Part shown: positions 51,009 to 64,000 of the stretch, one piece after another
Layout: the number at the start of each line of letters is the position of its first letter
How positions within the stretch are numbered: position 1 is the stretch's first letter
From: an uncultured Candidatus Saccharibacteria bacterium
GTDB taxonomy: Bacteria; Patescibacteriota; Saccharimonadia; Saccharimonadales; AWTP1-31
DNA length: 64,000 bases
Assembly: GCA_937903325.1 (NCBI GenBank)
Contig: CALCZR010000059.1
Location: forward strand, 151,547 to 215,546
Direction of reading: 5' to 3'
Translations under genes and position numbers: made by a program
The notes under the pieces: generated by a model
Told to the model about the DNA's origin: nothing
The model's input: the letters and a program-made list of their open reading frames with translations, nothing else
Databases searched by the model: none

Positions 51009-51845
51009 GTGCGACGACATAAAGCAATCTTGGTGGCAATTGTTTTAATGGCAGTTTCTGCTCTTAGTTTGCTGGTTCCTGAATTAGCCCAAGCTGCTCA
51101 AACGTCGACTTCACAAGGCTTCAAGATCAACACTGCAGTGAGCGAAGGTGCGCTGGTGAGTATCGATCAAAAGGATTCCCAAGCCGTGGAGATGGCCAGT
51201 CTTTCCAGTCGTGACGCCATGGTCGGGGTCGCAGTTAGTAATGGCCAGGCACTTGTTACTTTTAGCGATGGATCTGGGAGAGTGCAGGTAGTAAGTAGCG
51301 GACAGGCCCCGACACAAGTCTCTACTGCGAATGGAAATATTAAAAAGGGTGACCGCTTGAGCATCTCACCCATTAGCGGAGTAGCCATGAAGGCTAGTAG
51401 TGCCGGTAAAGTTATTGGTGTGGCTCAACAGGATTTTAATGGCACCGAGTCTAAAGACAAAAAGTCAGTAGAGTTAACCGACAGTGCCGGGCAAAAGAAA
51501 ACAGTGCAGGTGGGCAAGGCGGTTGTGGAAGTATCGGTCGAAGAGTGGGCGCCGAATGGCCAGCCGAACAGCCCACTGCTCAATAATCTGCGTAGTTTCT
51601 TAGGCACCACTGTTGGTAAACCAGTTAGTAACGTCCAAGCGGTCATGGCGGTAGCGGTTGTATTGTTTGCTATCCTCGCCTCCGGTATTATTCTGTATAG
51701 TTCGGTGTCATCGAGTATTCATTCAATTGGGCGGAATCCGTTATCTAAAGGGATTATCCGACGTAGTTTGTTTGTCATGATCGGTCTGTCGGTTATTGTG
51801 GTTGTTGGTGCGGCATCGGCAGTGTATTTAATTCTAGGGGGCTAA
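51009..51845 (+). CDS. Secreted-domain protein with C-terminal ATP synthase c-subunit-like hairpin
   Basis: A signal peptide and a roughly 190-aa domain precede a C-terminal 70 aa that aligns to c-subunit helix-loop-helix: GRNPLSKGIIRRSLFVMIGLSVIVVVGAASAVYLIL versus E. coli [37 protein letters not shown]. The Asp61 position is Val. Confidence 0.5.
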   Translation: MRRHKAILVAIVLMAVSALSLLVPELAQAAQTSTSQGFKINTAVSEGALVSIDQKDSQAVEMASLSSRDAMVGVAVSNGQALVTFSDGSGRVQVVSSGQAPTQVSTANGNIKKGDRLSISPISGVAMKASSAGKVIGVAQQDFNGTESKDKKSVELTDSAGQKKTVQVGKAVVEVSVEEWAPNGQPNSPLLNNLRSFLGTTVGKPVSNVQAVMAVAVVLFAILASGIILYSSVSSSIHSIGRNPLSKGIIRRSLFVMIGLSVIVVVGAASAVYLILGG

Positions 51846-51849
51846 AAGG

Positions 51850-52467
51850 GTGTTTGATGTACGGTTTGTAGGAGCTATCGGGTGTCTGGTTATCGCCGGT
51901 ATTGCTCTTATTCTCCTGATGCGTGAACGTACCTGGGCACGAGATAAATACCGAAAAGAGCTCAAGATGACTATCTTGCAGCCCGACTTTATTGCCAGTC
52001 TCCGTAAAGAACTAGAGAAAGACGTCCAAACTCATGTTAAGGCAGCCATAGCACCGCTGACCAAAGAGGTGGGTGAAGTAGTAGCAGATGCCAAAAAGCA
52101 AACCCTTGCTAATCTTGACGAAAGCCTCAAGGAAAATCGAGCAGCCTTGCGTGAGGCGACTGAAGAGCAAGTTGCAGTTATCAAAAACCTGGTGGCCGGG
52201 GATGCTGGTTCCTTGCAACAGAGTATGGTGACCTTACAGAAAGACATCGAAGACCTGCAGCAAGAACACCAAGCCGTGCTGGCCGATTACCGAACCAAGG
52301 TACTTGCCCGAGTAAAAACACTTGTTGACGAGCAGGCTGCAGATCTTCTGGCGGATTACCTACAAAGTAGCCTGCAAGGCCTAGAGCTTGGTGACCAACA
52401 GGAATTTATCTTAGCTCGTCTCGATGCTAACAAAGACGCGCTATTCAAGGAGCTCGGTAATGACTAG
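51850..52467 (+). CDS. atpF: ATP synthase b-subunit-like protein
   Basis: A single N-terminal TM helix and a long coiled-coil sit between the c-like and delta-like genes in a 205-aa product. Confidence 0.5.
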   Translation: MFDVRFVGAIGCLVIAGIALILLMRERTWARDKYRKELKMTILQPDFIASLRKELEKDVQTHVKAAIAPLTKEVGEVVADAKKQTLANLDESLKENRAALREATEEQVAVIKNLVAGDAGSLQQSMVTLQKDIEDLQQEHQAVLADYRTKVLARVKTLVDEQAADLLADYLQSSLQGLELGDQQEFILARLDANKDALFKELGND

Positions 52468-52906
52468 GTCGGCTATTACTATTCCGGTATCTATTGCCAC
52501 ACTCGAGCAACTCAAGCACTTGTTGACTGAGCTGGATATTGCGCTGTCTAGCAAGCGAACCAAAAGGTCGTTATCTGCAGATTTACAAGCAGCACTGCAA
52601 GAGAATGGCATAGACTCACTAACGGCCCAAACTACCGCCCAACTTCGCTCGGCAGTAAGTGACCTCATTGCACAGCTACCGGTGGTGAAAGTAGTCACTG
52701 CCCAGCCACTCGAGAACGCCCAACAAGCCTCTATCCAGAAGTGGTTTACCAGTAATATTGCCCGTAGAGTTATCTTGAGCTTCAAGACAGATTCGAGCTT
52801 GCTCGCCGGAGTTATTCTGCAAACACCAGAAAACCGTTACGACTTTTCATTGCAAGCAGGACTGTCTACCGGCCGCGCCTTACTAGCTAAGCGGGTGGCC
52901 GCGTGA
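52460..52906 (+). CDS. atpH: ATP synthase delta (OSCP)-like subunit
   Basis: The C-terminus RVILSFKTDSSLLAGVILQTPENRYDFSLQAGL fits the delta-subunit pattern. The ATG at 52460 overlaps the atpF stop by 8 nt, and the stop overlaps the atpA start. Confidence 0.5.
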   Translation: MTRSAITIPVSIATLEQLKHLLTELDIALSSKRTKRSLSADLQAALQENGIDSLTAQTTAQLRSAVSDLIAQLPVVKVVTAQPLENAQQASIQKWFTSNIARRVILSFKTDSSLLAGVILQTPENRYDFSLQAGLSTGRALLAKRVAA

Positions 52907-54315
52907 GCCAGCTGTTTAATCGTCTGGTGGCAGCCAATATGCCGGTTGGTGAAATCGTGGCGGCTAACCGTTTTATCCTGACGGTCACTGGTATGCCAGG
53001 CATCATGCTGGGTAGTCAGGTGGTGACCGAAGACGGAAACTTAGGTTTTGTTCGCAGTATTGCCGACGAACTCGTGACAGTGGATCTACTGACTAGTGAA
53101 AACGCGGTTGTTGGTAGCGGCATTGTTATGTACAAGCCAGAGCTGACCATTGCTCCCAGCCGTTCCTTACTCGGTCGAGTTGTTGACCCCCTCCTAAAAG
53201 GGCTCGATGGTGGATCGCCTATTCTGTCTAAGGAATCATATCCGGTGTTTGCACCGGCTCCGACGTTTGCAGAGCGTGTCATGTTGAATCAGCAGCTGGA
53301 GACAGGTGTTACCGTAGTAGACACTTTGTTCCCGATTGTCATGGGACAGCGTATTGCCATTATGGGGGATGCTAAGTCTGGTAAGACCAGCTTTGCAGCC
53401 CAAGCGGCTGTTAACCAAGCTCGCATAGGGCGCATTGTGGTATTTGTACTCATAGCTAAACGTAAGACAGATGTCGAACAACTTGTAGATTACCTTGAAA
53501 CCAATGGTACTCTCAAGAACACTGTCATTATCGTGGCCGACAGTCTTGCCGCCTTGCCGCTGGCGTTCCTGGCACCATATTCCGGTGCGGCGGTGGCCGA
53601 ATACTTCTGGCACAATGATTCGGACGTCGTAATTATCTACGACGATCTGGCTAGCCACGCCAAAGTCTACCGAGAGATGTCACTACTCGGCGACGCTTCA
53701 CCGGGCCGTGAATCATATCCTGGGGACATGTTCTACCGACATTCGTCACTCCTGGAACGAGCGGGCAAGCTCAAGGTTAACCAGCGATCGTTGTCGGCCC
53801 TGCCAATTATGACTACTAGCAACAACGACATAACCAGTCACTTATCTACCAGTCTTATTTCTATTACTGACGGACAGATTATCTTTGACACCGAGGAAAT
53901 GCAGAAGGGTGCCACACCACCGGTTAATGTGGGCTTAAGTGTTTCGCGTGTTGGTGGTCGTGCGCAAGAAAGTATGCAAAAGGCTATGGCTCAGGATATC
54001 TTTACGACGCTGGCCTCCTACCGACAAGCAAGTGAGTTTGCACACTTTGGCCAAGAACTACCCGACCAGTACCGTCAGGCACTGCGACTGGGTGATCGAA
54101 TCCGGACATTCTTTAACCAGGCTCCTAACGAATTCTTTACGTTGCCCGAACAGCAGGTCATGCTCAAGACGGCATTTCTGGCAGGTGACAAAATGCTGGA
54201 CATGCCAGCTATTAAGAAGGCGGTGAAGAAGGCGGTGAATAGTGCCTTGGCCTCTGAGACACACAGTGATCTAGCCCAGAAGATGGTTGAAAAGCACGTG
54301 GAGCATAAATCATGA
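52903..54315 (+). CDS. atpA: F1 ATP synthase alpha subunit (divergent)
   Basis: LLGRVVDPL...VDTLFPIVMGQRIAIMGDAKSGKTSFAAQAAVNQ carries a Walker A of GDAKSGKT against the canonical GDRQTGKT, and DELS is replaced by DDLA. The product is 470 aa. Confidence 0.85.
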   Translation: MSQLFNRLVAANMPVGEIVAANRFILTVTGMPGIMLGSQVVTEDGNLGFVRSIADELVTVDLLTSENAVVGSGIVMYKPELTIAPSRSLLGRVVDPLLKGLDGGSPILSKESYPVFAPAPTFAERVMLNQQLETGVTVVDTLFPIVMGQRIAIMGDAKSGKTSFAAQAAVNQARIGRIVVFVLIAKRKTDVEQLVDYLETNGTLKNTVIIVADSLAALPLAFLAPYSGAAVAEYFWHNDSDVVIIYDDLASHAKVYREMSLLGDASPGRESYPGDMFYRHSSLLERAGKLKVNQRSLSALPIMTTSNNDITSHLSTSLISITDGQIIFDTEEMQKGATPPVNVGLSVSRVGGRAQESMQKAMAQDIFTTLASYRQASEFAHFGQELPDQYRQALRLGDRIRTFFNQAPNEFFTLPEQQVMLKTAFLAGDKMLDMPAIKKAVKKAVNSALASETHSDLAQKMVEKHVEHKS

Positions 54316-55163
54316 ATGCCCATACCCGAATCCTCAAAGACGAACTCCAAACTGTACGGGTCATAGAGGACCTAACGGAAGTGTTCCAGAACACTTCCAG
54401 CGTAAAGATCCGCTCTATTCGGAAGCAGGTGTTAAGTTCCAAAATGTTCTACAACGACCTGTGGGATATTTACCAACAACTTAGAACTGAAACGCGCATA
54501 TCGCTACGGGATGCAGCGAGTAGTGACAAAGAACTATTTCTGTTTATCGCTTCTCCGGCGGGGTTGGCGGGGCAGAACGATGAGCAGATTATGCGTGACC
54601 TCAAAGAACACTACAACCCCGCCCGCCAAGACGTGGTGGTTATTGGCTCGCACGGAGCCCAACTGCTCAAACAGCATGGCATTAAGCCGGTTAGGGCTTT
54701 TGAAGTGCCGGACATTACTAAAGACTTTTCAGTGACACCGATCGTCGATATTATCCGTTCCTACGAAACAGCCGTAGCTTTTTATGACGCCTATCTTTCA
54801 TTAACTACCCAGCAGTCTGCCAAGCGTCAGTTCCTACTGGAAGCCCAACAGCTAACAGATGAAGAGCGGGCATTAATCGAAACGGGCGAGGCTGAGATTA
54901 TTGCATCCGGTAACTACATTTTCGAGCCGTCACTTGAGGTAGCGATCTTAACTTTGGAGCAAACTATGTTGTATACCACCGTCACGCAGTTGCTACTGGA
55001 ATCACGTCTGGCGCAGCTGGCTAGCCGCTTTACCAACATGACATTGGCTCATGAACGTGCAGTGAAGCAGCGCAAGAAAACCTTCCTAGAATTTTTATCG
55101 AGTAAGCGTACCGAACGCGACGAACTAACACGGCAAATTACCATTGCAGCAAGGGGGGTATAG
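54312..55163 (+). CDS. atpG: F1 ATP synthase gamma subunit
   Basis: The 283-aa ORF sits between alpha and beta with ATGA overlaps on both sides and has conserved N- and C-terminal helices. Confidence 0.65.
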   Translation: MNAHTRILKDELQTVRVIEDLTEVFQNTSSVKIRSIRKQVLSSKMFYNDLWDIYQQLRTETRISLRDAASSDKELFLFIASPAGLAGQNDEQIMRDLKEHYNPARQDVVVIGSHGAQLLKQHGIKPVRAFEVPDITKDFSVTPIVDIIRSYETAVAFYDAYLSLTTQQSAKRQFLLEAQQLTDEERALIETGEAEIIASGNYIFEPSLEVAILTLEQTMLYTTVTQLLLESRLAQLASRFTNMTLAHERAVKQRKKTFLEFLSSKRTERDELTRQITIAARGV

Positions 55164-56572
55164 TGGCTGCTAAAACACATGCTGGGCAAGTCGGGTATAT
55201 TCGTTCACTGAATGATCTGTTTGTTGTTATTCGACTAACCAGCGAACAGCGGCCCGGAGCTGGGCAGACCCTCACTATTGTTGATAAGCCGGAGGTGATA
55301 CTCTTGGTTGAGGCCTCCACTGAAGATACCGTCTACTGTCTGAACATTTTTGGTTCACCAAACATCCAACAGCATGACGTTGTATTGATCGGTGACCAGT
55401 CAATTATGTTGCCGTCTGGCCAATCTGTTTTGGGGCGAGTATTTGATTCAATGGGTCGAGTGATTGACGGTGAAGGAGACTTCAAGGGCGGACACAAGCT
55501 GCCAATGCGTACGGTTGTTAAGCAGCAGCTGGGCAAGAAGAATAAGCCCGAAGTTTTGGAAACAGGTATCAAGGTTATTGATTTCCTAGCTCCCTTCGTG
55601 AAAGGCCGGCGTATCGGCATTATAGGTGGTGCGGGTGTCGGTAAAACAGTATTAACCACCGAAATGATGCACAACGTGGCCGACAAGAAAGCAGCACTCA
55701 GCTTCTTTGTCGGTATTGGTGAGCGTATCCGTGAAGGGCACGAACTATACCATACCCTTAAGGACCGCGGGCTCGGTGAATCGACCGTCATGTTCATGGG
55801 GCAGATGAACGAAAACGCTGCGCTCCGTTCACTGGTTGGTCCGTCCGCCGCAACGGTGGCCCACTCATTTACCGAACAGGGTAAGGACGTACTGTTCTTC
55901 GTTGATAACATCTACCGTTTTGTGCAGGCTCGTAATGAACTGGCTGCCATGCGTGGTACCACGCCAAGTGAGGGTGGCTACCAGGCTAGTCTGTTCTCGG
56001 ATTTGCACCGTTTCGAAGATTCACTTCATGCCACTGAAAAGGGAAGTATTACGTCTATCCAGTCCATCTTTATCCCGGCAGATGACCTCAGTGATCCGGC
56101 GGTAGTCGAGATTAGCCAACAACTTGACTCCACTATTGTGCTGTCTCGTGATGTCTTTGAGCGCGGTATATTCCCGGCGGTTGATCTACTTAACACCACG
56201 AGCTCACTCATCACCCCAGAGATACTCGGAGAACGCCACTTTAACCTTGTGGGCCGAGTTAAGGCCGTGATGCGTAAGTACTACAGTCTGCGTACCATTA
56301 TTGCTATTGTCGGTGAAAGTGAGTTGTCACCAGAGGATCGACTAGACTACGAACGGGCTCAAGAACTCACCCAGTTCTTCTCGCAGCGTATGTTTGTAAC
56401 AGAAGACCTCAGCGGTAAAAAAGGCGAGTACTTTACCCGCGAGCAAACCCTGAAGGGTGTTGAAAAGATCCTAAATGGTACCAGCACGCCAGCGCCAACA
56501 GAACCACCAAAGGAAGAAGCCGAAGCCAATACGGCACAGGCCGATACTACCAATGAAGCACCTCACAGCTAA
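55163..56572 (+). CDS. atpD: F1 ATP synthase beta subunit
   Basis: GGAGVGKTVLTTEMMHNV (Walker A) and VLFFVDNIYRFVQARNELAAMRG...DDLSDPA are present. Confidence 0.95.
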   Translation: MAAKTHAGQVGYIRSLNDLFVVIRLTSEQRPGAGQTLTIVDKPEVILLVEASTEDTVYCLNIFGSPNIQQHDVVLIGDQSIMLPSGQSVLGRVFDSMGRVIDGEGDFKGGHKLPMRTVVKQQLGKKNKPEVLETGIKVIDFLAPFVKGRRIGIIGGAGVGKTVLTTEMMHNVADKKAALSFFVGIGERIREGHELYHTLKDRGLGESTVMFMGQMNENAALRSLVGPSAATVAHSFTEQGKDVLFFVDNIYRFVQARNELAAMRGTTPSEGGYQASLFSDLHRFEDSLHATEKGSITSIQSIFIPADDLSDPAVVEISQQLDSTIVLSRDVFERGIFPAVDLLNTTSSLITPEILGERHFNLVGRVKAVMRKYYSLRTIIAIVGESELSPEDRLDYERAQELTQFFSQRMFVTEDLSGKKGEYFTREQTLKGVEKILNGTSTPAPTEPPKEEAEANTAQADTTNEAPHS

Positions 56573-56816
56573 CCCCGAGCTTACCGTAAAAGCCTATTCC
56601 ATGAAGGAAGTCATGTTTGAGGGCAAGGCTTTTTCGTTATCTGCTGCTAACAAAATTGGACCACTCGATGTGCTTCCTGGACACGCCAATATGCTCGCCA
56701 TATTAACCGACTGCACAGTGGTCATTGAGACTGAACAGGGTGAGAAGACATTTCAAATCGATAACGGCATTCTGAAGGTTTCTAGTAACCAAGTTTCGCT
56801 GTTTATTAATCTCTAG
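56553..56816 (+). CDS. atpC: F1 ATP synthase epsilon subunit (N-terminal beta-sandwich only)
   Basis: ELTVKAYSMKEVMFEGKAFSLSAANKIGPLDVLPGHANMLAIL fits the epsilon N-terminal domain. The 87-aa product has no C-terminal helical hairpin. The ATG at 56553 overlaps atpD by 20 nt. Confidence 0.6.
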   Translation: MKHLTANPELTVKAYSMKEVMFEGKAFSLSAANKIGPLDVLPGHANMLAILTDCTVVIETEQGEKTFQIDNGILKVSSNQVSLFINL

Positions 56817-56852: not shown

Positions 56853-59800
56853 ATGTATAAGCATGAGCACAGTACTATGAGGGTTATTGGCACACGTACG
56901 GTGCACAGAATACGGGCAGGGGTTACCCGACTGTTTCCTATACTTAAAACCATACTGGCCATTGGTGTTCCATCGCTTGTCGTGTTGGGTGTCAGTTGGA
57001 TACCTTTAACGCAGCGTCTGTATAACAACTTAGACCAAGCACCGAGCCAAATCTCTAACACTAGTGTCTCGTCCTATCTACTTGTCTCTACGGTCATCGC
57101 TCTAGGAATTGGTATTGCTCTGTATCTGCTTATTGACTATCGGCAACACCGAAAACCCCTTAAAGTTGCTATGCCGACGATTCGCTACAACCTCCGGCAC
57201 CACGTTCGAGTGGTAACATTACCATTAGCACGGAGTAAGTGGAAGGTGCTTACATTCAGTACTGTAAAGGGGCTTGCTAGCTTTGCACTGGTGGGGGTGG
57301 CGATTGTTTTTGGGGTGCAGCACCTTGCTCAAGCAAAGAATTTTGACATTACTATTGCCGGTGACGGTGCCGGAAGATTTGTTGCATTCACGCCAACACC
57401 AAAAATTAGAGGGACCGCCGCGCCAAATAGCGTACTGTCCGTTACCGTGGACAACACGCTGGTGGGCACGACAACAGTTAACACTAAAGGTCAGTGGGTG
57501 TACCAGCCAACTTCTAATCTCTCCATTGGTGAGCATAGTATCAAGGTAAGTTCCTTTGAGTCAGGAAAATACACATACATGGAGAGCGACCAAGGGTTGG
57601 CTGTCATTAATACGCTGGAGCATCGTGTCTCTGGCAATATACCATTACCCATGGACGTTATAAGCGAAGCCGGTAACCCTACTAATAAAACGACAACGGT
57701 AGCCACTCAGACAGTTGCCGGAAAAGTCTACGCCCTGTCAGCGCCTAATACTAACGGTGGAACTCCGAACTTTAGCAGTGGTTATGTAACAATAGTTAAT
57801 GCAGCTGATGGGACGGTTATTAAAAACCTCGCGCTATCTTTTCGTCCGTCGGTTCTTTCTGTCAGCCCAGATGGGCTGAGGGTTGTGGTGGTCGGCAGTA
57901 GTTCAGATAATAATGGACAGGAGCAGGCAACCAATATAGCTATTGTGGATGTCGCGAGCGACGAATTTTCAGGATCGGTCATATCGCTTGAAAAGCGTTA
58001 CTTTCTGACTAACGATCCTTGGCAGGGTCTATTTAGTCATGACCCAACGGTGTACCTGATCCGGACTGCCCATATGTTTTACTCCATAAATCTCGATACT
58101 GGTTCGGTCGCACAGCTTGACCTGACCACCTACACTTTCAACGACACGTATCGAATGGGCAGCCTCAAAGTTAATCTGGCACACAACAGTAACACGGTGT
58201 ATCTGCTAGGCGATGAAGTGGTCATCAAAGTTGACCTCGATAGCTTTACGGTTGTTTCAGACATCGATACCCACGATGGCTTTATCTATACCACGCCTAC
58301 TGCGGCTTTTATAACTAACGACGACAGTAAATTGATCTACCTGGATGCACGCACGACTGCCGGTAGTGGGGTCAGACGGATGATTACAATCGATCTAAAT
58401 ACAGAGACCATACTGACTCCACTACTATTGAACGATACTATGCGATTGCCAGATGAAATAATAACTGACAGTGCGCAGCACAAGGCATATTTTGTCTTTG
58501 AAGATGACAGTAACCAACAAATTGCGGCAGAGATTGTTGTAGCTGACCTGGTAAACAATGTCTTGCTCGCTCCTATCCCTCTTACTGATAATTATTACAG
58601 CCCGGGCAGAACTTTGTACTCCTCGCCGGTAGATCCTGATATCGCCTACTACCTTGATAATATTGAGAGTGATCAAACCACAGGCAACGTGTATGAACTT
58701 AACTTAGTTACTGGTGCGTCTGAGCTTATTTCAGAGATTCCCAGCTATAACATTGGGTTTACGCAGGCAGCAGGGGATACCTATCTGTTCTATGATGGAC
58801 GAGTTAATAACGAAATCGGTCTTACATACATCATGCGTAATATAACTACTGGGACGAACTATACGCTCGCATCGCCTTTTAATACCCAGCTATACACAAC
58901 ACAGCTTAGTAGCAGCGCTACTGCAACGCAATCCAGTACTGCTGAGAAGACCATACAGTTTACGGTGGCTACAGTGAGTATTACTGAGCCTTTGCCGCAG
59001 ACTCCAATTATGGGCACGAGCTACACGTTGCACGGCAAGGCATTGGCAGGGTATCAAGTCGAAGTCTTAGTTGGCGATGAGTCTAAGGGTGTTACGACAA
59101 CGGATCAAAATAATGACTGGTCCATGGAGGTCACCGGCCTAACGCCTGGCGATATTGATATAACCGCTCGGGCTAGTCTTGATTCTGTCGGTATCCCTAT
59201 ATTCTATATTTCTGCTGATTACAGCATAACTGGCTTCCATGTGTACAACGTGGAGAAAGACCAAGTGGAAGTGCATGACGATACTAACTTTGGAGGGAGT
59301 GTCCCTATCATAACGACACCTGACGGTAGTGTATCTTTTACGCTCGATTTGACACACCTTTACGAAAACCAAGGTGAAGGGCTAATACACAAATACAACA
59401 TTGTAACGAAGCAGAACGAGGGCGATCTCATTTTACCTGATGAGTATGTCGACGAGATATTCTCCAATAGCATGAACTTCTTCTCCGAAGACGGAAAGCT
59501 CCTATACTTTCTTGACTCCGACGACACCGACAGCTTTCTGGCGCTTGATGTAGAGACACTTACGTATACCCAGGCAAGCCTTGGTATAAACAGTAATGAC
59601 TTCAGTATCTCCTATGGGGATATGCAGCAGGTTTCCCAAAGTGCCGATAGGCGATATGTGTATCTACCAGGATGGGAAGACAATTCGATACATGTGCTCG
59701 ACACCAACACTAAGCAGATGCAGGTAATCACTGTTGGCAGGACGGTAGGGGCGGTTATGACTCCGGCTCCAGGCTATATCGTTGCCGTAGTAGGAGATTA

Positions 59801-61982
59801 CGACCAATTCAATAGCTCTGTTCTGAATATTGATGGGCTCAAAGTATTGAGTACAGATGACTATAGCCTTTTGGGTGACGTGCCACTTTCGTCATCGGAC
59901 TATCGGGATATTGACCTCTACCAGCGTCAGAACAAGCTATTTGTAGTCCCACGAAACCAGGACTCTGACTTTACGAGCATGCCGATAGTTAACACCAGTA
60001 ACTGGTCAATTATCGATACGGTTTCCCTAGAATCACCGGGCTACTCCAATGGTTCGAGCGGGACAGCTTTTGGTGCGGGCTTTAGTGCAGACGGCAGTGT
60101 TGGCTTTTGGTTCTCTAGTACCGATAACTTGATTCATCGGTTCGATACAAGTGATGGCCATGCTCTAGCAAATGTGGAGCTCCCGACTATGATCGATGCC
60201 ATTTATCCTGCCCCAGATAGTGCGGATGAATATGGATTCCGTCTGCATGATAACAGCTTTGGTATCTACAACATTGCGACGAATACTATAGGTGACATTA
60301 TTCAAGCCGGGCTTTCGGGGTTTGCAGGTGCTGACATCTTTAACAATACGACGCTGAGATATTTCAAGGGATTTGTAGCAGCTGAAACAACCGTCCAATT
60401 CACCGTCCAAGATGGTGATCCTGAAGATCCACCAGTGACTCCTCCGACGCCGACTACTCCTACCACTCCCACGACCCCTACTACGCCTACACAATCCACC
60501 ACACCTCGTCGTACTCCGCAGCCAACCACTAACCCAAACCAAACTTCTCAGCAACCCGAAACGGTAGTGCCAGACATACCAGTTACACAGCAGTATACCG
60601 GTGGTATTACGGAGTTGCCGGTTGCAAAAGCAGAAGTTAAAAAACCATTCATCTCCGAGCCGTTGGCCCGTGCTTTGTCGTGGCTACTGCTCCTTATCTT
60701 GCTCATTCTCGCCATCCTATATGGACGACGAGCCCGCAGGGAATACCTGGTACGCAAGCAACTCGAGCAAAGCCTGGCGCACCTCCGTGGCATGAAGCAA
60801 GCAGCCGACAGCTATCTGGAAATCACCACACACTATCTCAATACACCGGTGGCCATTATGAACGGGGCGGTGGAGTTGCTGGTATCACTCAAGAAGCTTC
60901 CGGACTGGGCGATACAACGACTGCAAGCTGAGCTCAAGAAATACGGTGATTCGGTGGCTCGTCTGAGTGCGGCAAGTCAGACTATGTCCGTTGCGCAACC
61001 AGAGGTGACGGGCACGGTTATGAGCGCTGCAGTTGCACGAACGAGCCCACTCAAACAGCGAGCGGTATGGCTGCCCATTAGCATTGTTGTGGGGCTCTTT
61101 GGGCTTGTTTCGGTGCTGTTCGCATTCACGGGTGTGTACTCACTGGGCAGTGTGCAATTTGGTTTGCAACTACTCTGCCTGGCATTGACTGCTGGGTTGA
61201 TCGTAACGGCGCAGCGCAGCAAAGACATTCAGCTTGCGGCGCAGGAAGCGGCGCGAAGTGCGGCTAATACAGAAAAAGATTTGATACGGAAACGTGAGGT
61301 ATTCTTACAGCAATCTTCGACGGTTCTTGCGGAGCACCACGAGAACCTGACGATAATCAGTAAAGACCTGCACGTTATACCGGAAACCAGAACCTTCTAT
61401 AACGGTCTGGGCATGCTTGGTCAGATGGTGCAAAGTCTTAGCAAGGTTGGCCGATTCAGTAACACGACGGCCGATGCACCAATACTTGATCTGGGGCAGG
61501 AAATACCGCGGGCACTTGCTGCACTGCAAAGCAAAGCTACTGAAAAGCAGGTGCAACTGCAACTGGATATTCCTGCTAGTTTGAATCTGGCAATTCAGCC
61601 GCAAGAGCTAAGCCAGCTGGTGCAGTCACTAACCGACAACGCCCTGATATTCAGTAAACCAAATGGCCGGGTCACGTTGTCTGCACAGGGATCTGGCAAC
61701 TGGATTATGCTTAAAGTGATCGACGCTGGTAGTGGTATTGAGCCCGAGCGTCTCGCACACATCTTCGAACCGTTTTATAGGGCTACAGACGCTGAGACGT
61801 TTAACTACGAAGGTCTAGGGCTTAATCTCCATGTCGACAAGCTTGTCGTCGAGAAGCTCGGCGGCACCATTGACCTCAAGAGTAGCCGTACTGGCACTAC
61901 CGTAACTCTGCGGTTGCCAGCATCTCAGCTCACGAAGCTTGAGGCTCCAATGTTGGTTGCTCCAGTGCCCGCAGCTGGCTAG
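56853..61982 (+). CDS. Giant 1709-aa membrane protein: Ig-like plus YVTN-like beta-propeller ectodomain, PT linker, membrane-embedded histidine kinase
   Basis: Three N-terminal TM helices are followed by Ig-like segments and beta-propeller repeats (VLSVSPDGLRVVVVG...IAIVDVASDEF; NSIHVLDTNTKQMQVITVG). A PT linker (TPPTPTTPTTPTTPTTPT) and a TM helix lead into H-box-like ITTHYLNTPVAIM, a TM hairpin, a second H-box-like LAEHHENLTII, an N-box DNALIF, G1 VIDAGSGIEPERL and G2 GLGLNL. Confidence 0.8.
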   Translation: MYKHEHSTMRVIGTRTVHRIRAGVTRLFPILKTILAIGVPSLVVLGVSWIPLTQRLYNNLDQAPSQISNTSVSSYLLVSTVIALGIGIALYLLIDYRQHRKPLKVAMPTIRYNLRHHVRVVTLPLARSKWKVLTFSTVKGLASFALVGVAIVFGVQHLAQAKNFDITIAGDGAGRFVAFTPTPKIRGTAAPNSVLSVTVDNTLVGTTTVNTKGQWVYQPTSNLSIGEHSIKVSSFESGKYTYMESDQGLAVINTLEHRVSGNIPLPMDVISEAGNPTNKTTTVATQTVAGKVYALSAPNTNGGTPNFSSGYVTIVNAADGTVIKNLALSFRPSVLSVSPDGLRVVVVGSSSDNNGQEQATNIAIVDVASDEFSGSVISLEKRYFLTNDPWQGLFSHDPTVYLIRTAHMFYSINLDTGSVAQLDLTTYTFNDTYRMGSLKVNLAHNSNTVYLLGDEVVIKVDLDSFTVVSDIDTHDGFIYTTPTAAFITNDDSKLIYLDARTTAGSGVRRMITIDLNTETILTPLLLNDTMRLPDEIITDSAQHKAYFVFEDDSNQQIAAEIVVADLVNNVLLAPIPLTDNYYSPGRTLYSSPVDPDIAYYLDNIESDQTTGNVYELNLVTGASELISEIPSYNIGFTQAAGDTYLFYDGRVNNEIGLTYIMRNITTGTNYTLASPFNTQLYTTQLSSSATATQSSTAEKTIQFTVATVSITEPLPQTPIMGTSYTLHGKALAGYQVEVLVGDESKGVTTTDQNNDWSMEVTGLTPGDIDITARASLDSVGIPIFYISADYSITGFHVYNVEKDQVEVHDDTNFGGSVPIITTPDGSVSFTLDLTHLYENQGEGLIHKYNIVTKQNEGDLILPDEYVDEIFSNSMNFFSEDGKLLYFLDSDDTDSFLALDVETLTYTQASLGINSNDFSISYGDMQQVSQSADRRYVYLPGWEDNSIHVLDTNTKQMQVITVGRTVGAVMTPAPGYIVAVVGDYDQFNSSVLNIDGLKVLSTDDYSLLGDVPLSSSDYRDIDLYQRQNKLFVVPRNQDSDFTSMPIVNTSNWSIIDTVSLESPGYSNGSSGTAFGAGFSADGSVGFWFSSTDNLIHRFDTSDGHALANVELPTMIDAIYPAPDSADEYGFRLHDNSFGIYNIATNTIGDIIQAGLSGFAGADIFNNTTLRYFKGFVAAETTVQFTVQDGDPEDPPVTPPTPTTPTTPTTPTTPTQSTTPRRTPQPTTNPNQTSQQPETVVPDIPVTQQYTGGITELPVAKAEVKKPFISEPLARALSWLLLLILLILAILYGRRARREYLVRKQLEQSLAHLRGMKQAADSYLEITTHYLNTPVAIMNGAVELLVSLKKLPDWAIQRLQAELKKYGDSVARLSAASQTMSVAQPEVTGTVMSAAVARTSPLKQRAVWLPISIVVGLFGLVSVLFAFTGVYSLGSVQFGLQLLCLALTAGLIVTAQRSKDIQLAAQEAARSAANTEKDLIRKREVFLQQSSTVLAEHHENLTIISKDLHVIPETRTFYNGLGMLGQMVQSLSKVGRFSNTTADAPILDLGQEIPRALAALQSKATEKQVQLQLDIPASLNLAIQPQELSQLVQSLTDNALIFSKPNGRVTLSAQGSGNWIMLKVIDAGSGIEPERLAHIFEPFYRATDAETFNYEGLGLNLHVDKLVVEKLGGTIDLKSSRTGTTVTLRLPASQLTKLEAPMLVAPVPAAG
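60436..60540 (+). repeat. Low-complexity Pro/Thr-coding tract (CC/AC-rich) within giant gene
   Basis: ACTCCTACCACTCCCACGACCCCTACTACGCCTACA encodes the (TPT) linker. Confidence 0.5.
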
Positions 61983-62108: not shown

Positions 62109-64000
62109 ATGGAAAATAAACAAGTTGGCCAGTCCCAAAATACGGCCAATAACACCGGTTTAGAAAGCCTGGAACAGGTACCGGCAACTTCTCGCGTTGC
62201 GCCTATTAGTGCATCCAAAAATCCCTCATCTCGTCCAACTCGCCCCTGGAAAAAGCAGGCAATGCTCTTGGCGGTTGTCTTGCTATTTGTTGGCGGGCTT
62301 GGAATTGCCGCCCTGCAACTAGCCGGTAAGGTCAAGAATGCTGGTAAGAACCAAGATGCTTTCGACAGTTACAAAACAGTTAACAACCCAGTCCTCGGCA
62401 ATGACACCCTGTTGCCTGTACAGTCCCTAAATGATCAAACGGTGACTATTAACGGTGATCTGACCGTACAAGGGAAGTTGAATCTTTCGGCTCAAGCACT
62501 GAATGACCTGGCAAGTATTCTTGGCAATACCGTTCGTCTGACCCCAGTGCTCGGTGGTCCAGCACAAGCCGGGAATATCAACATCTCTGGTGGTGTAATG
62601 GCTAGCACCTTCCAGGGTAACGGCGCAAACCTGTCTGACCTTAATGCCAGCAGCATTACTAGTGGTACGCTCAACAACGAACGTCTTGACGCCAGCGTAA
62701 CCAAGCTTGGCCAGACTATTCCACTGAGTGCTTTGCAATCCACCGTGCTTTCAAGTCTAAACGGTATCTCCAATAACGGAGCAGCTTCGATCATCGGGAC
62801 AGGTAGTGTGACCGTATCGACAGACATAGCAAACGGAGTGATCACTATCGACAGCGTTGCTGGCGACATTACTGGCGTGGCCGTAGGTAGCGGACTGCTG
62901 GGCGGTGGCACAAGCGGTGACGTAACTCTGAACCTGGATACCGGTATCGTAACCATGCAAGGTAACACCTTTAACGGTGCTAACCAGTTGGTTAAACTCG
63001 GTAGTTCTGGTGAACTGCCGGTCATTAGTGCCACTAACCTGACAAACTTAAACGCCAGCAACTTGAGTACTGGAACTGTTAACGACTCACGGCTCAGCAC
63101 TAATGTCACGGTGCAAGGCAACAGTTTCAATGGCACTAACCAGCTCGTGAAGCTAAACGGTGCAGGGGAATTACCTTCACTAAGTGCTACTAACCTCACC
63201 AACCTCAACGCCAGCAATATCGGTACTGGTACACTCAACGACGCTCGCCTTGGTGGTAACGTAACGCTTCAAGGCAACACCTTTAACTTGGCTAACAAGC
63301 TGGTGCAACTGGACAGTAGCGGTAATCTGCCATCGCTTAATGGATCAGCCATTACTAACCTAAATGCCGGCAACGTAAGCAGTGGAACCCTGGCAGACGC
63401 ACGACTGAGCGCTAATGTTGCGCTACTAAATGCTAACCAAACCTTCACCGGAAATGTCGTGTTTAGTCAGCCGCTTTCCGTAAATGTTATTCAGCCTTCT
63501 GCAGCTATGACCATTGGGGCAACTAACCAGGCCTTGACTCTACAAGGTGACCTAACTACTAAGCTGACAGGTACCGGCGGTACCGGTACGGTAAGCCTTG
63601 GCTTTACCGGTACTCCTGTCGGTAATGTGGTGTACCAGCTCGACGCGTCTGCCCCGGCTGGAACGTACACTCTCTGTACTTCAGTTGGTAACTGTGCTGG
63701 TTCTGGTGACGGCGTTACTTCTCCTGGCGGTACCACTAACAAAATCGCTAAGTTTGTCGGTGGCCAAGCTGTTGGCGACAGTTCAATCTCTGACGATGGA
63801 CTGCTCGTAACCGTTGGTGCTAATGCGCTGTACAAGGCTGGCGCAGATTCTACCACCGCCTTCCGAGTACAGAACGCTGCCGGCTCTACCAACGTATTTA
63901 CCGTAGACAGTACTAACACACGAGTGGCCATTGGGCAGAGTACCGCTAACTATACCCTGGACGTAAATGGTGACATCAACTCTGCTACCGGCCTTCGAGT
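62109..64000 (+). CDS. Tail-fibre-like repeat surface protein, 3'-truncated at window edge (absent from ORF track because no stop)
   Basis: My own translation from the ATG at 62109 reads MENKQVGQSQ..., with an upstream in-frame stop at 62052. It has an N-in TM helix (AMLLAVVLLFVGGLGIAAL) followed by repeats such as QGNTFNGANQLVKLGSSGELPVISATNLTNLNASNLSTGTVNDSRL. The open frame continues to 64000. Confidence 0.7.
   Translation, partial: MENKQVGQSQNTANNTGLESLEQVPATSRVAPISASKNPSSRPTRPWKKQAMLLAVVLLFVGGLGIAALQLAGKVKNAGKNQDAFDSYKTVNNPVLGNDTLLPVQSLNDQTVTINGDLTVQGKLNLSAQALNDLASILGNTVRLTPVLGGPAQAGNINISGGVMASTFQGNGANLSDLNASSITSGTLNNERLDASVTKLGQTIPLSALQSTVLSSLNGISNNGAASIIGTGSVTVSTDIANGVITIDSVAGDITGVAVGSGLLGGGTSGDVTLNLDTGIVTMQGNTFNGANQLVKLGSSGELPVISATNLTNLNASNLSTGTVNDSRLSTNVTVQGNSFNGTNQLVKLNGAGELPSLSATNLTNLNASNIGTGTLNDARLGGNVTLQGNTFNLANKLVQLDSSGNLPSLNGSAITNLNAGNVSSGTLADARLSANVALLNANQTFTGNVVFSQPLSVNVIQPSAAMTIGATNQALTLQGDLTTKLTGTGGTGTVSLGFTGTPVGNVVYQLDASAPAGTYTLCTSVGNCAGSGDGVTSPGGTTNKIAKFVGGQAVGDSSISDDGLLVTVGANALYKAGADSTTAFRVQNAAGSTNVFTVDSTNTRVAIGQSTANYTLDVNGDINSATGLR
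62958..63425 (+). repeat. Three tandem 156-bp (52-aa) repeats within tail-fibre-like gene
   Basis: The units start at 62958, 63114 and 63270 and are about 65-70 percent identical at DNA level. Each encodes QGN[ST]FN..N.LV.L...G.LP..S...LTNLNASN...G T..D.RL. Confidence 0.7.

Follow-up and report, generated by a model that had tools for sequence, protein, structure and literature searches.

We analysed a 64,000-nucleotide stretch of DNA (the window) on contig CALCZR010000059.1 of an uncultured Candidatus Saccharibacteria bacterium. It encodes a 1709-amino-acid (aa) protein that is a giant membrane sensor histidine kinase of this Candidatus Saccharibacteria (TM7) bacterium. In the 3' quarter of its open reading frame (ORF; 56853-61982, forward strand), we found a kinase module with two hairpins of the dimerization and histidine phosphotransfer (DHp) type, separated by a pair of transmembrane (TM) helices. 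The first hairpin, DHp1, carries the predicted phospho-acceptor His1327, and the second, DHp2, lacks a conserved histidine and adjoins the catalytic and ATP-binding (CA) domain. To our knowledge, in essentially all characterised HisKA-type kinases the histidine-bearing DHp is fused directly to CA. Our best explanation, to which we assign a probability of about 0.6, is a two-DHp kinase core, in which the CA domain tethered to DHp2 phosphorylates His1327 on DHp1, probably within a four-helix bundle formed by a single chain. The gene and the elements of its kinase module are as follows (pLDDT, predicted local distance difference test):

56853..61982, forward strand: gene of the giant sensor histidine kinase, a single ORF of 1709 aa
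60663..60731, forward strand: TM4 (aa 1271-1293), running from outside to inside; Kyte-Doolittle peak of 2.67 at aa 1271-1289
60732..60998, forward strand: DHp1 (aa 1294-1382), with alpha1 to aa 1346 and alpha2 at aa 1351-1380; pLDDT 90-97
60822-60860, forward strand: H-box ITTHYLNTPVAIM (aa 1324-1336), with the acceptor His1327 at codon 60831-60833
60999..61058, forward strand: variable linker (aa 1383-1402) between DHp1 and TM5; pLDDT 64-73
61059..61211, forward strand: TM hairpin of TM5 (aa 1403-1429) and TM6 (aa 1433-1453) with a very short outer loop
61212..61463, forward strand: DHp2 (aa 1454-1537), with alpha1' from TM6 to aa 1508 and alpha2' at aa 1510-1535
61320-61322, forward strand: Thr1490, at the acceptor position of DHp2
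61326-61358, forward strand: LAEHHENLTII (aa 1492-1502), with the His1495/His1496 codons at 61335-61340
61464..61937, forward strand: CA (HATPase_c) domain (aa 1538-1695), with N-box Asn1596, G1 box D1624-x-G-x-G and G2 box G1654-x-G-x-x-L
61938..61979, forward strand: C-terminal tail after CA (aa 1696-1709) with the motif A-P-x-L-[VI]-x-P

Two DHp-type hairpins around a membrane hairpin

Domain searches with the whole protein recovered only the C-terminal end of this module. In Pfam, HATPase_c matched aa 1583-1691 (E 1.3e-20, 74 bits versus a cutoff of 26.4 bits), no HisKA family appeared at E <= 1, and besides the CA domain there were only weak Ig and propeller signals. Alignments with NCBIfam kinase models started only at about aa 1512-1526 and likewise comprised the CA domain alone. 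We then employed a profile of the whole module, without selection on the H-box motif, in a search of a library of 1.84 billion proteins. The module was matched as one stretch in at least 150 clusters at 50% identity, and 1064 proteins were found at E <= 1e-30. Conservation was counted among the 150 listed cluster representatives, with denominators of 142, 150, 151 or 161 depending on the column or segment.

The spacing of the module is nearly fixed throughout these proteins. The distance from His to N-box was 261-288 aa (median 267.5, 142 representatives), and the spans of alpha1 (54 aa in 159 of 161), alpha1' (56 aa in 156 of 161) and alpha2' (28 aa in 147 of 161) hardly varied. Only the linker between DHp1 and TM5 is variable in length (15-20 aa or more). 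All members that are named or could be placed belong to Candidatus Saccharibacteria. When one genome per GTDB species was scanned with a degenerate pattern, 23 loci with ORFs of 1700 to >2450 aa were recovered, all of them in metagenome-assembled genomes (MAGs) of Candidatus Saccharibacteria. The order of TM helix, DHp1 with His, TM hairpin, DHp2 without His and CA is a conserved family trait, and the architecture that a preliminary description of this DNA had called unusual survives as such. Misassembly or gene fusion was rejected as its origin because the architecture is conserved family-wide.

DHp1 was compared by hhalign with 88 canonical DHp domains that came from ordinary kinases. A 150-sequence profile gave a probability of 98.6% (E 1.2e-15) over 62 columns that covered both helices, with His1327 on the acceptor histidine of the canonical domain; the smaller 22-sequence profile gave 95.9% (E 5.8e-9). 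With single DHp1 sequences, Pfam HisKA stayed below threshold (E 0.026 for the window protein and 0.002), and it recurred as a sub-threshold match in 19 of 22 family members (14-19 bits versus a gathering score of 26.9). Histidine occupies column 1327 in 141 of 142 representatives, and in no other column of the module does it reach 30%. Conservation extends to Tyr1328 (+1, 92%), Thr1331 (+4, 95%) and Pro1332 (+5, 96%). The box reads H-Y-L-N-T-P versus the canonical H-E/D-L-R-T-P and is recognised by profile-profile comparison only, so that the term 'canonical' used for it in the preliminary description does not fit. Judged by sequence, DHp1 is a divergent but genuine DHp with His1327 at the acceptor position. 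It has no ATP-binding domain of its own. AlphaFold predicted one unbroken helix (aa 1269-1346) in which TM4 runs into alpha1 of DHp1.

Two TM helices had been proposed between the histidine motifs, and several observations bear this out. The hydrophobic stretches LPISIVVGLFGLVSVLFAFTGVY (aa 1407-1429) and GLQLLCLALTAGLIVTA (aa 1437-1453) underlie Kyte-Doolittle 19-residue means of 2.48 for TM5 and 1.86 for TM6, and AlphaFold placed the respective helices at aa 1403-1426 and from aa 1433 onwards. Two TM-like peaks between His and N-box were present in 133 of 142 representatives, and the TM5-TM6 hairpin spans exactly 54 aa in 134 of 150. Counts of Lys plus Arg were 3.4 after TM4, 2.5 before TM5, 1.0 in the TM5-TM6 loop and 3.4 after TM6. 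Since this pattern fits the positive-inside rule, both DHp hairpins and the CA domain are predicted to be cytoplasmic.

Leaving aside the H-box and CA boxes, conservation in the module is highest at two residues, Pro1408 where TM5 starts (nt 61074-61076, 87%) and Gly1518 in the F-N-G-L of alpha2' (nt 61404-61406, 93%). These residues may kink a helix or form a site for packing against DHp1.

DHp2 yielded weaker but concordant profile matches. Alone, its 150-sequence profile aligned with canonical DHp alpha1 (probability 77.5%, E 1.9e-5); together with CA it aligned with canonical DHp+CA through the whole DHp (219 columns); and the direct comparison of DHp1 with DHp2 gave 80.8% (E 1.3e-5) in the same register. 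All three alignments put Phe1484 on the conserved Phe six residues before the histidine and Thr1490 on the acceptor. In this register, His1495 falls on Pro and His1496 on Leu of the 'RTPL' in the canonical 'SHELRTPL'. With the small profile, the CA-anchored alignment already extended into the C-terminal half of alpha2'. The 22-sequence profiles of DHp2 were without similarity to DHp (probability 0.2%) or DHp1 (0.7%), and Pfam HisKA matched DHp2 in none of 22 family members. Profile searches of PDB sequences with each hairpin gave no kinase matches; the weak coiled-coil-type matches that appeared (WzzE at E 0.02, designed helical bundles) were treated as composition effects.

These results bear on LAEHHENLTII, which the preliminary description had read as a second, degenerate H-box, with the DHp either duplicated or split by an insertion within the membrane. 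Its strings, coordinates and spacings were all correct: the acceptor codon starts at 60831, the HH codons occupy 61335-61340, and the distances to Asn1596 are 269 aa for His1327 and 101 aa for His1495. The second H-box itself is not upheld. The HH pair sits 5-6 residues past the acceptor position, and only the first segment matches Pfam HisKA. Among homologs, histidine is nearly invariant at 1327 and unconserved at the other two positions. Column 1495 contains His in 40 of 151 representatives (26%), Asp in 42, Glu in 15 and Asn in 14, with hydrophobic residues also replacing His, and column 1496 contains His in 5 of 151 (3%). Column 1490 is unconserved as well, and no conserved His exists anywhere in DHp2. 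What stands of the proposed duplication is the pair of DHp-type hairpins flanking the TM hairpin, as indicated by hhalign and by Foldseek (below). We regard HH1495/1496 as a chance pair of this one protein inside a real degenerate DHp. DHp2 itself is, as predicted from these alignments, a degenerate, His-less DHp contiguous with an intact CA domain.

The CA domain was unambiguous in hhalign (E 1e-44 to 1e-47). Asn1596, Gly1626 and Gly1656 are each conserved in 100% of the representatives and Asp1624 in 95%. The A-P-x-L-[VI]-x-P motif of the C-terminal tail is common to most of 28 aligned close family members.

Hairpin packing and competing explanations

We predicted the structure of the module with AlphaFold2 in monomer runs, using a 42-sequence alignment for aa 1268-1709 and, in a separate run, the helices alone (aa 1268-1540). 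The complete module (pLDDT 86.8, predicted TM-score (pTM) 0.81) consisted of a helix at aa 1269-1346, alpha2 at 1351-1380, an ill-defined linker, TM5, a helix at 1433-1508, alpha2' at 1510-1535 and the CA fold. The helices alone reached a pLDDT of 88.3 and a pTM of 0.74. For an all-helical chain of 273 residues, this pTM argues for one confidently placed assembly in the model, and not for two independent hairpins.

Foldseek searches against the PDB returned DHp+CA chains (HK853, DivL, ZraS, CusS, WalK and others) at E values of about 1e-12. The targets measure about 200-245 residues and were aligned over 211-236 columns, with target-normalised TM-scores of 0.6-0.75. Since gaps count as alignment columns, these matches can only be to the contiguous DHp2+CA block. 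BceS (8g3a_D), a chain with two TM helices, was aligned over 304 columns. No significant PDB match was obtained with the helix-only model (best E 0.36); ranked highest were single chains folded as long four-helix bundles (5vjs, target-normalised TM-score 0.45).

If our best explanation holds, movements of the beta-propeller and Ig domains outside the cell would be transmitted through the continuous TM4-alpha1 helix to the helix that bears the histidine. The TM hairpin would return the chain to the cytoplasm with DHp2 hanging from TM6, and the CA domain tethered to DHp2 would phosphorylate His1327 of DHp1, necessarily between hairpins. Both hairpins, which measure 54 and 56 residues between membrane and turn, would pack side by side and in register as a four-helix bundle of one polypeptide, a packing we propose because these lengths are nearly equal and rigidly conserved. 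Such a bundle would be a built-in, asymmetric equivalent (a pseudo-dimer) of the usual homodimeric DHp bundle. The phosphoryl group would presumably go on to a response regulator whose gene lies elsewhere in the genome. A more far-reaching claim, which we hold tentatively and at somewhat below even odds, is that the family represents a natural single-chain, obligately asymmetric transmembrane kinase, with strictly inter-hairpin autophosphorylation, no need for a dimer and a hard-wired half-of-sites asymmetry, which in ordinary kinases is transient.

Several points weigh against this explanation. The four-helix bundle of DHp1 and DHp2 within one chain is inferred from indirect evidence. When run on a monomer, AlphaFold has a tendency to pack helices whose true partner is a second subunit. 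In a mean-field direct coupling analysis (162 sequences, effective number Meff 141), the top couplings were gap or alignment artefacts in TM4. When scored without CA, the homology of DHp2 to DHp rests on moderate probabilities (77-81%) that were obtained with the 150-sequence profiles only. The residue after His1327 is Tyr in 92% of the members and not the catalytic acid; in HisKA kinases, an acidic residue (Glu or Asp) after the acceptor His is required for autophosphorylation. As Tyr replaces this acid, the autokinase chemistry may differ or be absent, and His1327 may act mainly in phosphotransfer or phosphatase reactions. Finally, no response regulator lies near the kinase gene: at E <= 1, the 64-kb window yielded neither a response regulator nor a receiver domain, and about 280 kb of sequence flanking the 23 related loci likewise yielded no receiver domain, while the Sphingorhabdus control locus (L028) did show one.

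The same architecture could also be arranged in a different quaternary structure. In a conventional homodimer, DHp1 would pair with DHp1 in a His-bearing bundle, and a structural DHp2-DHp2 bundle would position two CA domains that reach across. Nearly all studied HisKA kinases are homodimers, each hairpin is DHp-like by itself, and our AlphaFold runs, made on the monomer only, are compatible with this arrangement. The high pTM values of the single chain (0.81 and 0.74) suggest, however, that the hairpins satisfy each other, and membrane-to-turn helices of near-equal, invariant length are what one expects for in-register packing of the two. Neither argument is decisive, and we consider the homodimer unlikely but a serious contender.

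A further departure from the single-chain kinase core would be that the protein receives or removes phosphoryl groups and does not generate them. DHp1 would then be a phosphotransfer (HPt- or Spo0B-like) or phosphatase module, and DHp2+CA a pseudokinase that binds a nucleotide or a partner in the manner of DivL. The +4 Thr of HisKA kinases is linked to phosphatase activity, and this residue is kept in 95% of the members whereas the +1 position has become Tyr in 92%. DHp2 lacks the histidine as does DivL, whose structure (4q20) is among the top structural matches, and the missing adjacent response regulator would also agree with such a role. On the other hand, the conservation of all ATP-binding motifs of CA at 95-100% argues for catalysis, and with only about five two-component genes per genome in Patescibacteria (PMC7137472) an upstream kinase is not obvious. 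Together this makes a phosphotransfer or pseudokinase role improbable in our view. Least credible is a second functional phospho-acceptor at His1495 or His1496, which would give the protein two phosphorylation sites. The 101-aa spacing to Asn1596 is typical, and the alpha1' helix that contains the motif belongs to a DHp-like hairpin adjoining CA, but the low His content of both columns (26% and 3%), their alignment with Pro and Leu of 'RTPL', the occupation of the acceptor position by Thr1490 and the lack of HisKA matches in all 22 members make it very improbable indeed.

Ectodomain, family members and genomic setting

Upstream of the kinase module, the protein comprises the following elements:

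56952..57329, forward strand: three N-terminal TM-like helices (aa 34-52, 76-94 and 137-159) with Kyte-Doolittle peaks of 2.15, 2.59 and 1.97
57330..60662, forward strand: extracellular region (aa 160-1270) of Ig-like and beta-propeller-like repeats with a Pro/Thr-rich stalk at its end
60426-60566, forward strand: Pro/Thr-rich low-complexity stalk PPVTPPTPTTPTTPTTPTTPTQSTTP... (aa 1192-1238), just ahead of TM4

With three N-terminal TM helices, the next ~1100 aa are predicted to lie outside the cell. Pfam gave weak Big_13 and SGL matches in this ectodomain. NCBI names one family member of 3106 aa '6-bladed beta-propeller', and some members are listed as 'signal transduction histidine kinase' at JGI. 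A comparable Pro/Thr-rich stalk precedes the module at two further loci (L001 and L004).

L005 is a Saccharibacteria MAG locus syntenic with the window. Its ortholog (L005:2338-5790) is 60% identical in the kinase module and 35% in the ectodomain, while the products of the neighbouring genes atpD and atpC are 90% and 85% identical. The ectodomain thus appears to diverge much faster than its gene surroundings. Such low identity points to a surface-exposed region that diversifies rapidly, which is what one would expect of proteins in contact with a host.

Three paralogs from other genomes (L006, L009 and L015) retain the basic loop that links TM2 to TM3, along with TM3 itself (aa 95-174, nt 57135-57374), at 39-45% identity, despite unrelated ectodomain sequences. 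On the cytoplasmic side, this basic TM2-TM3 loop may be in contact with the kinase module.

Two or three paralogs of the 5-7 kb gene occur in single Saccharibacteria genomes of under ~1 Mb. Such sets are L005, L006 and L027 (on one 698-kb contig), L008, L009 and L010, and L015 and L025 (about 10 kb apart on one contig). The 698-kb contig CAYPDT010000001.1 is an example of a complete Saccharibacteria genome with members of the family. A subgroup of about 605-630 aa has the same C-terminal module (P0226, P0236, P0238, P0241, P0242, P0252-P0255, P0262, P0264 and P0267). Presumably their ectodomain is small, and they would be easier to work with in experiments. Two still shorter homologs of about 480 aa, P0003 and P0004, were considered as minimal modules and rejected. 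P0003 is truncated at a contig edge, since its Pro/Thr stalk continues in frame up to where the contig starts. Upstream of P0004 there are in-frame stops, and its species-representative copy is an ORF of >2400 aa.

An F-type ATP synthase operon (51009-56816) lies directly upstream of the kinase gene, with overlapping neighbouring ORFs, and the gene order is the same in L005. Two ORFs follow downstream on the opposite strand. The neighbouring genes are:

52424-52906: ATP synthase delta subunit
52903-54315: ATP synthase alpha subunit
54312-55163: ATP synthase gamma subunit
55163-56572: ATP synthase beta subunit
56475-56816: ATP synthase epsilon subunit
62492-63238, reverse strand: downstream ORF of 248 aa, 66% identical to the ORF at the same position in L005
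63491-63931, reverse strand: downstream ORF of 146 aa

Neither of the two downstream ORFs matched Pfam at E <= 0.01. The synteny with L005, together with the placement of 23 of 23 pattern-scan loci in Saccharibacteria MAGs, assigns the DNA of the window to a Saccharibacterium.

Relation to known kinases and meaning for Saccharibacteria

Class I HisKA kinases, such as HK853 of Thermotoga, ZraS and CusS of E. coli and WalK/YycG, share the N, G1 and G2 boxes with the CA domain described here. They also share the H-x-x-x-T-P core on alpha1 of a helical hairpin with DHp1, and DHp2+CA of our model superposes on them as one block at the TM-scores given above. However, the His-bearing hairpin of the Saccharibacteria protein is not attached to CA: about 190 residues, comprising two TM helices and a His-less hairpin, lie in between. 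As a result, His and N-box are 261-288 aa apart versus about 100-120 aa in class I kinases. Moreover, the +1 residue is Tyr where class I kinases have Glu or Asp, and the Pfam HisKA threshold is missed. The protein is thus a relative of the class I HisKA kinases and would work like them, but lacks two features that define this class, an acidic His+1 residue and the direct adjacency of His-bearing DHp and CA.

The C-terminal half of the module, TM5-TM6-DHp2-CA, has exactly the layout of the intramembrane-sensing kinases BceS and LiaS, including the minimal outer loop. In contrast to these, it is without an acceptor His (Thr1490, in a variable column, takes this position), and the same chain starts with an ectodomain of ~1100 aa, an extra TM helix and a His-bearing DHp. 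DivL of Caulobacter is a repurposed kinase, a pseudokinase with Tyr at the position of the acceptor His (PMC4211667). DHp2+CA is likewise a DHp+CA unit without acceptor His, and 4q20 was one of its best structural matches. However, the Saccharibacteria polypeptide also contains a genuine His-bearing DHp, as predicted above, and the residue that replaces the histidine in DHp2 is variable and not a fixed Tyr.

A kinase that works without a homodimeric DHp bundle has a precedent in EL346, a monomeric HWE/HisKA_2 kinase (PMC10359499); for the family described here, the monomeric state is our proposal. EL346 differs in being soluble, with a single DHp-like domain of another DHp family packed on its LOV sensor, and has neither a duplication nor a membrane hairpin. 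Rhodobacter CheA3 and CheA4 are split kinases, in which acceptor and ATP-binding modules are separate and phosphorylation takes place between units. They are two CheA-class polypeptides with an HPt P1 domain, whereas both units of the Saccharibacteria module are HisKA-like and covalently joined through the membrane. We searched the literature for DHp domains described as tandem, second or degenerate and for histidine kinases of Saccharibacteria. The search turned up no account of this architecture, which is not proof of novelty.

The conserved two-hairpin architecture characterises a large protein family of Saccharibacteria that is essentially without annotation. Present annotation ('6-bladed beta-propeller' or a generic histidine kinase) misses this layout. 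In a homodimeric bundle, cis and trans phosphorylation and the asymmetry of the subunits are hard to separate. If the one-chain bundle is true, the family would lend itself directly to studies of directionality and asymmetry in two-component signalling, and single-chain kinases could be engineered on its pattern. For epibiotic Saccharibacteria, these genes are a large investment, being among the largest in their tiny genomes. Given this size, the two or three paralogs per genome, the fast-evolving ectodomain and the small number of two-component genes (PMC7137472), the encoded proteins are strong candidates for sensors of the host cell surface.

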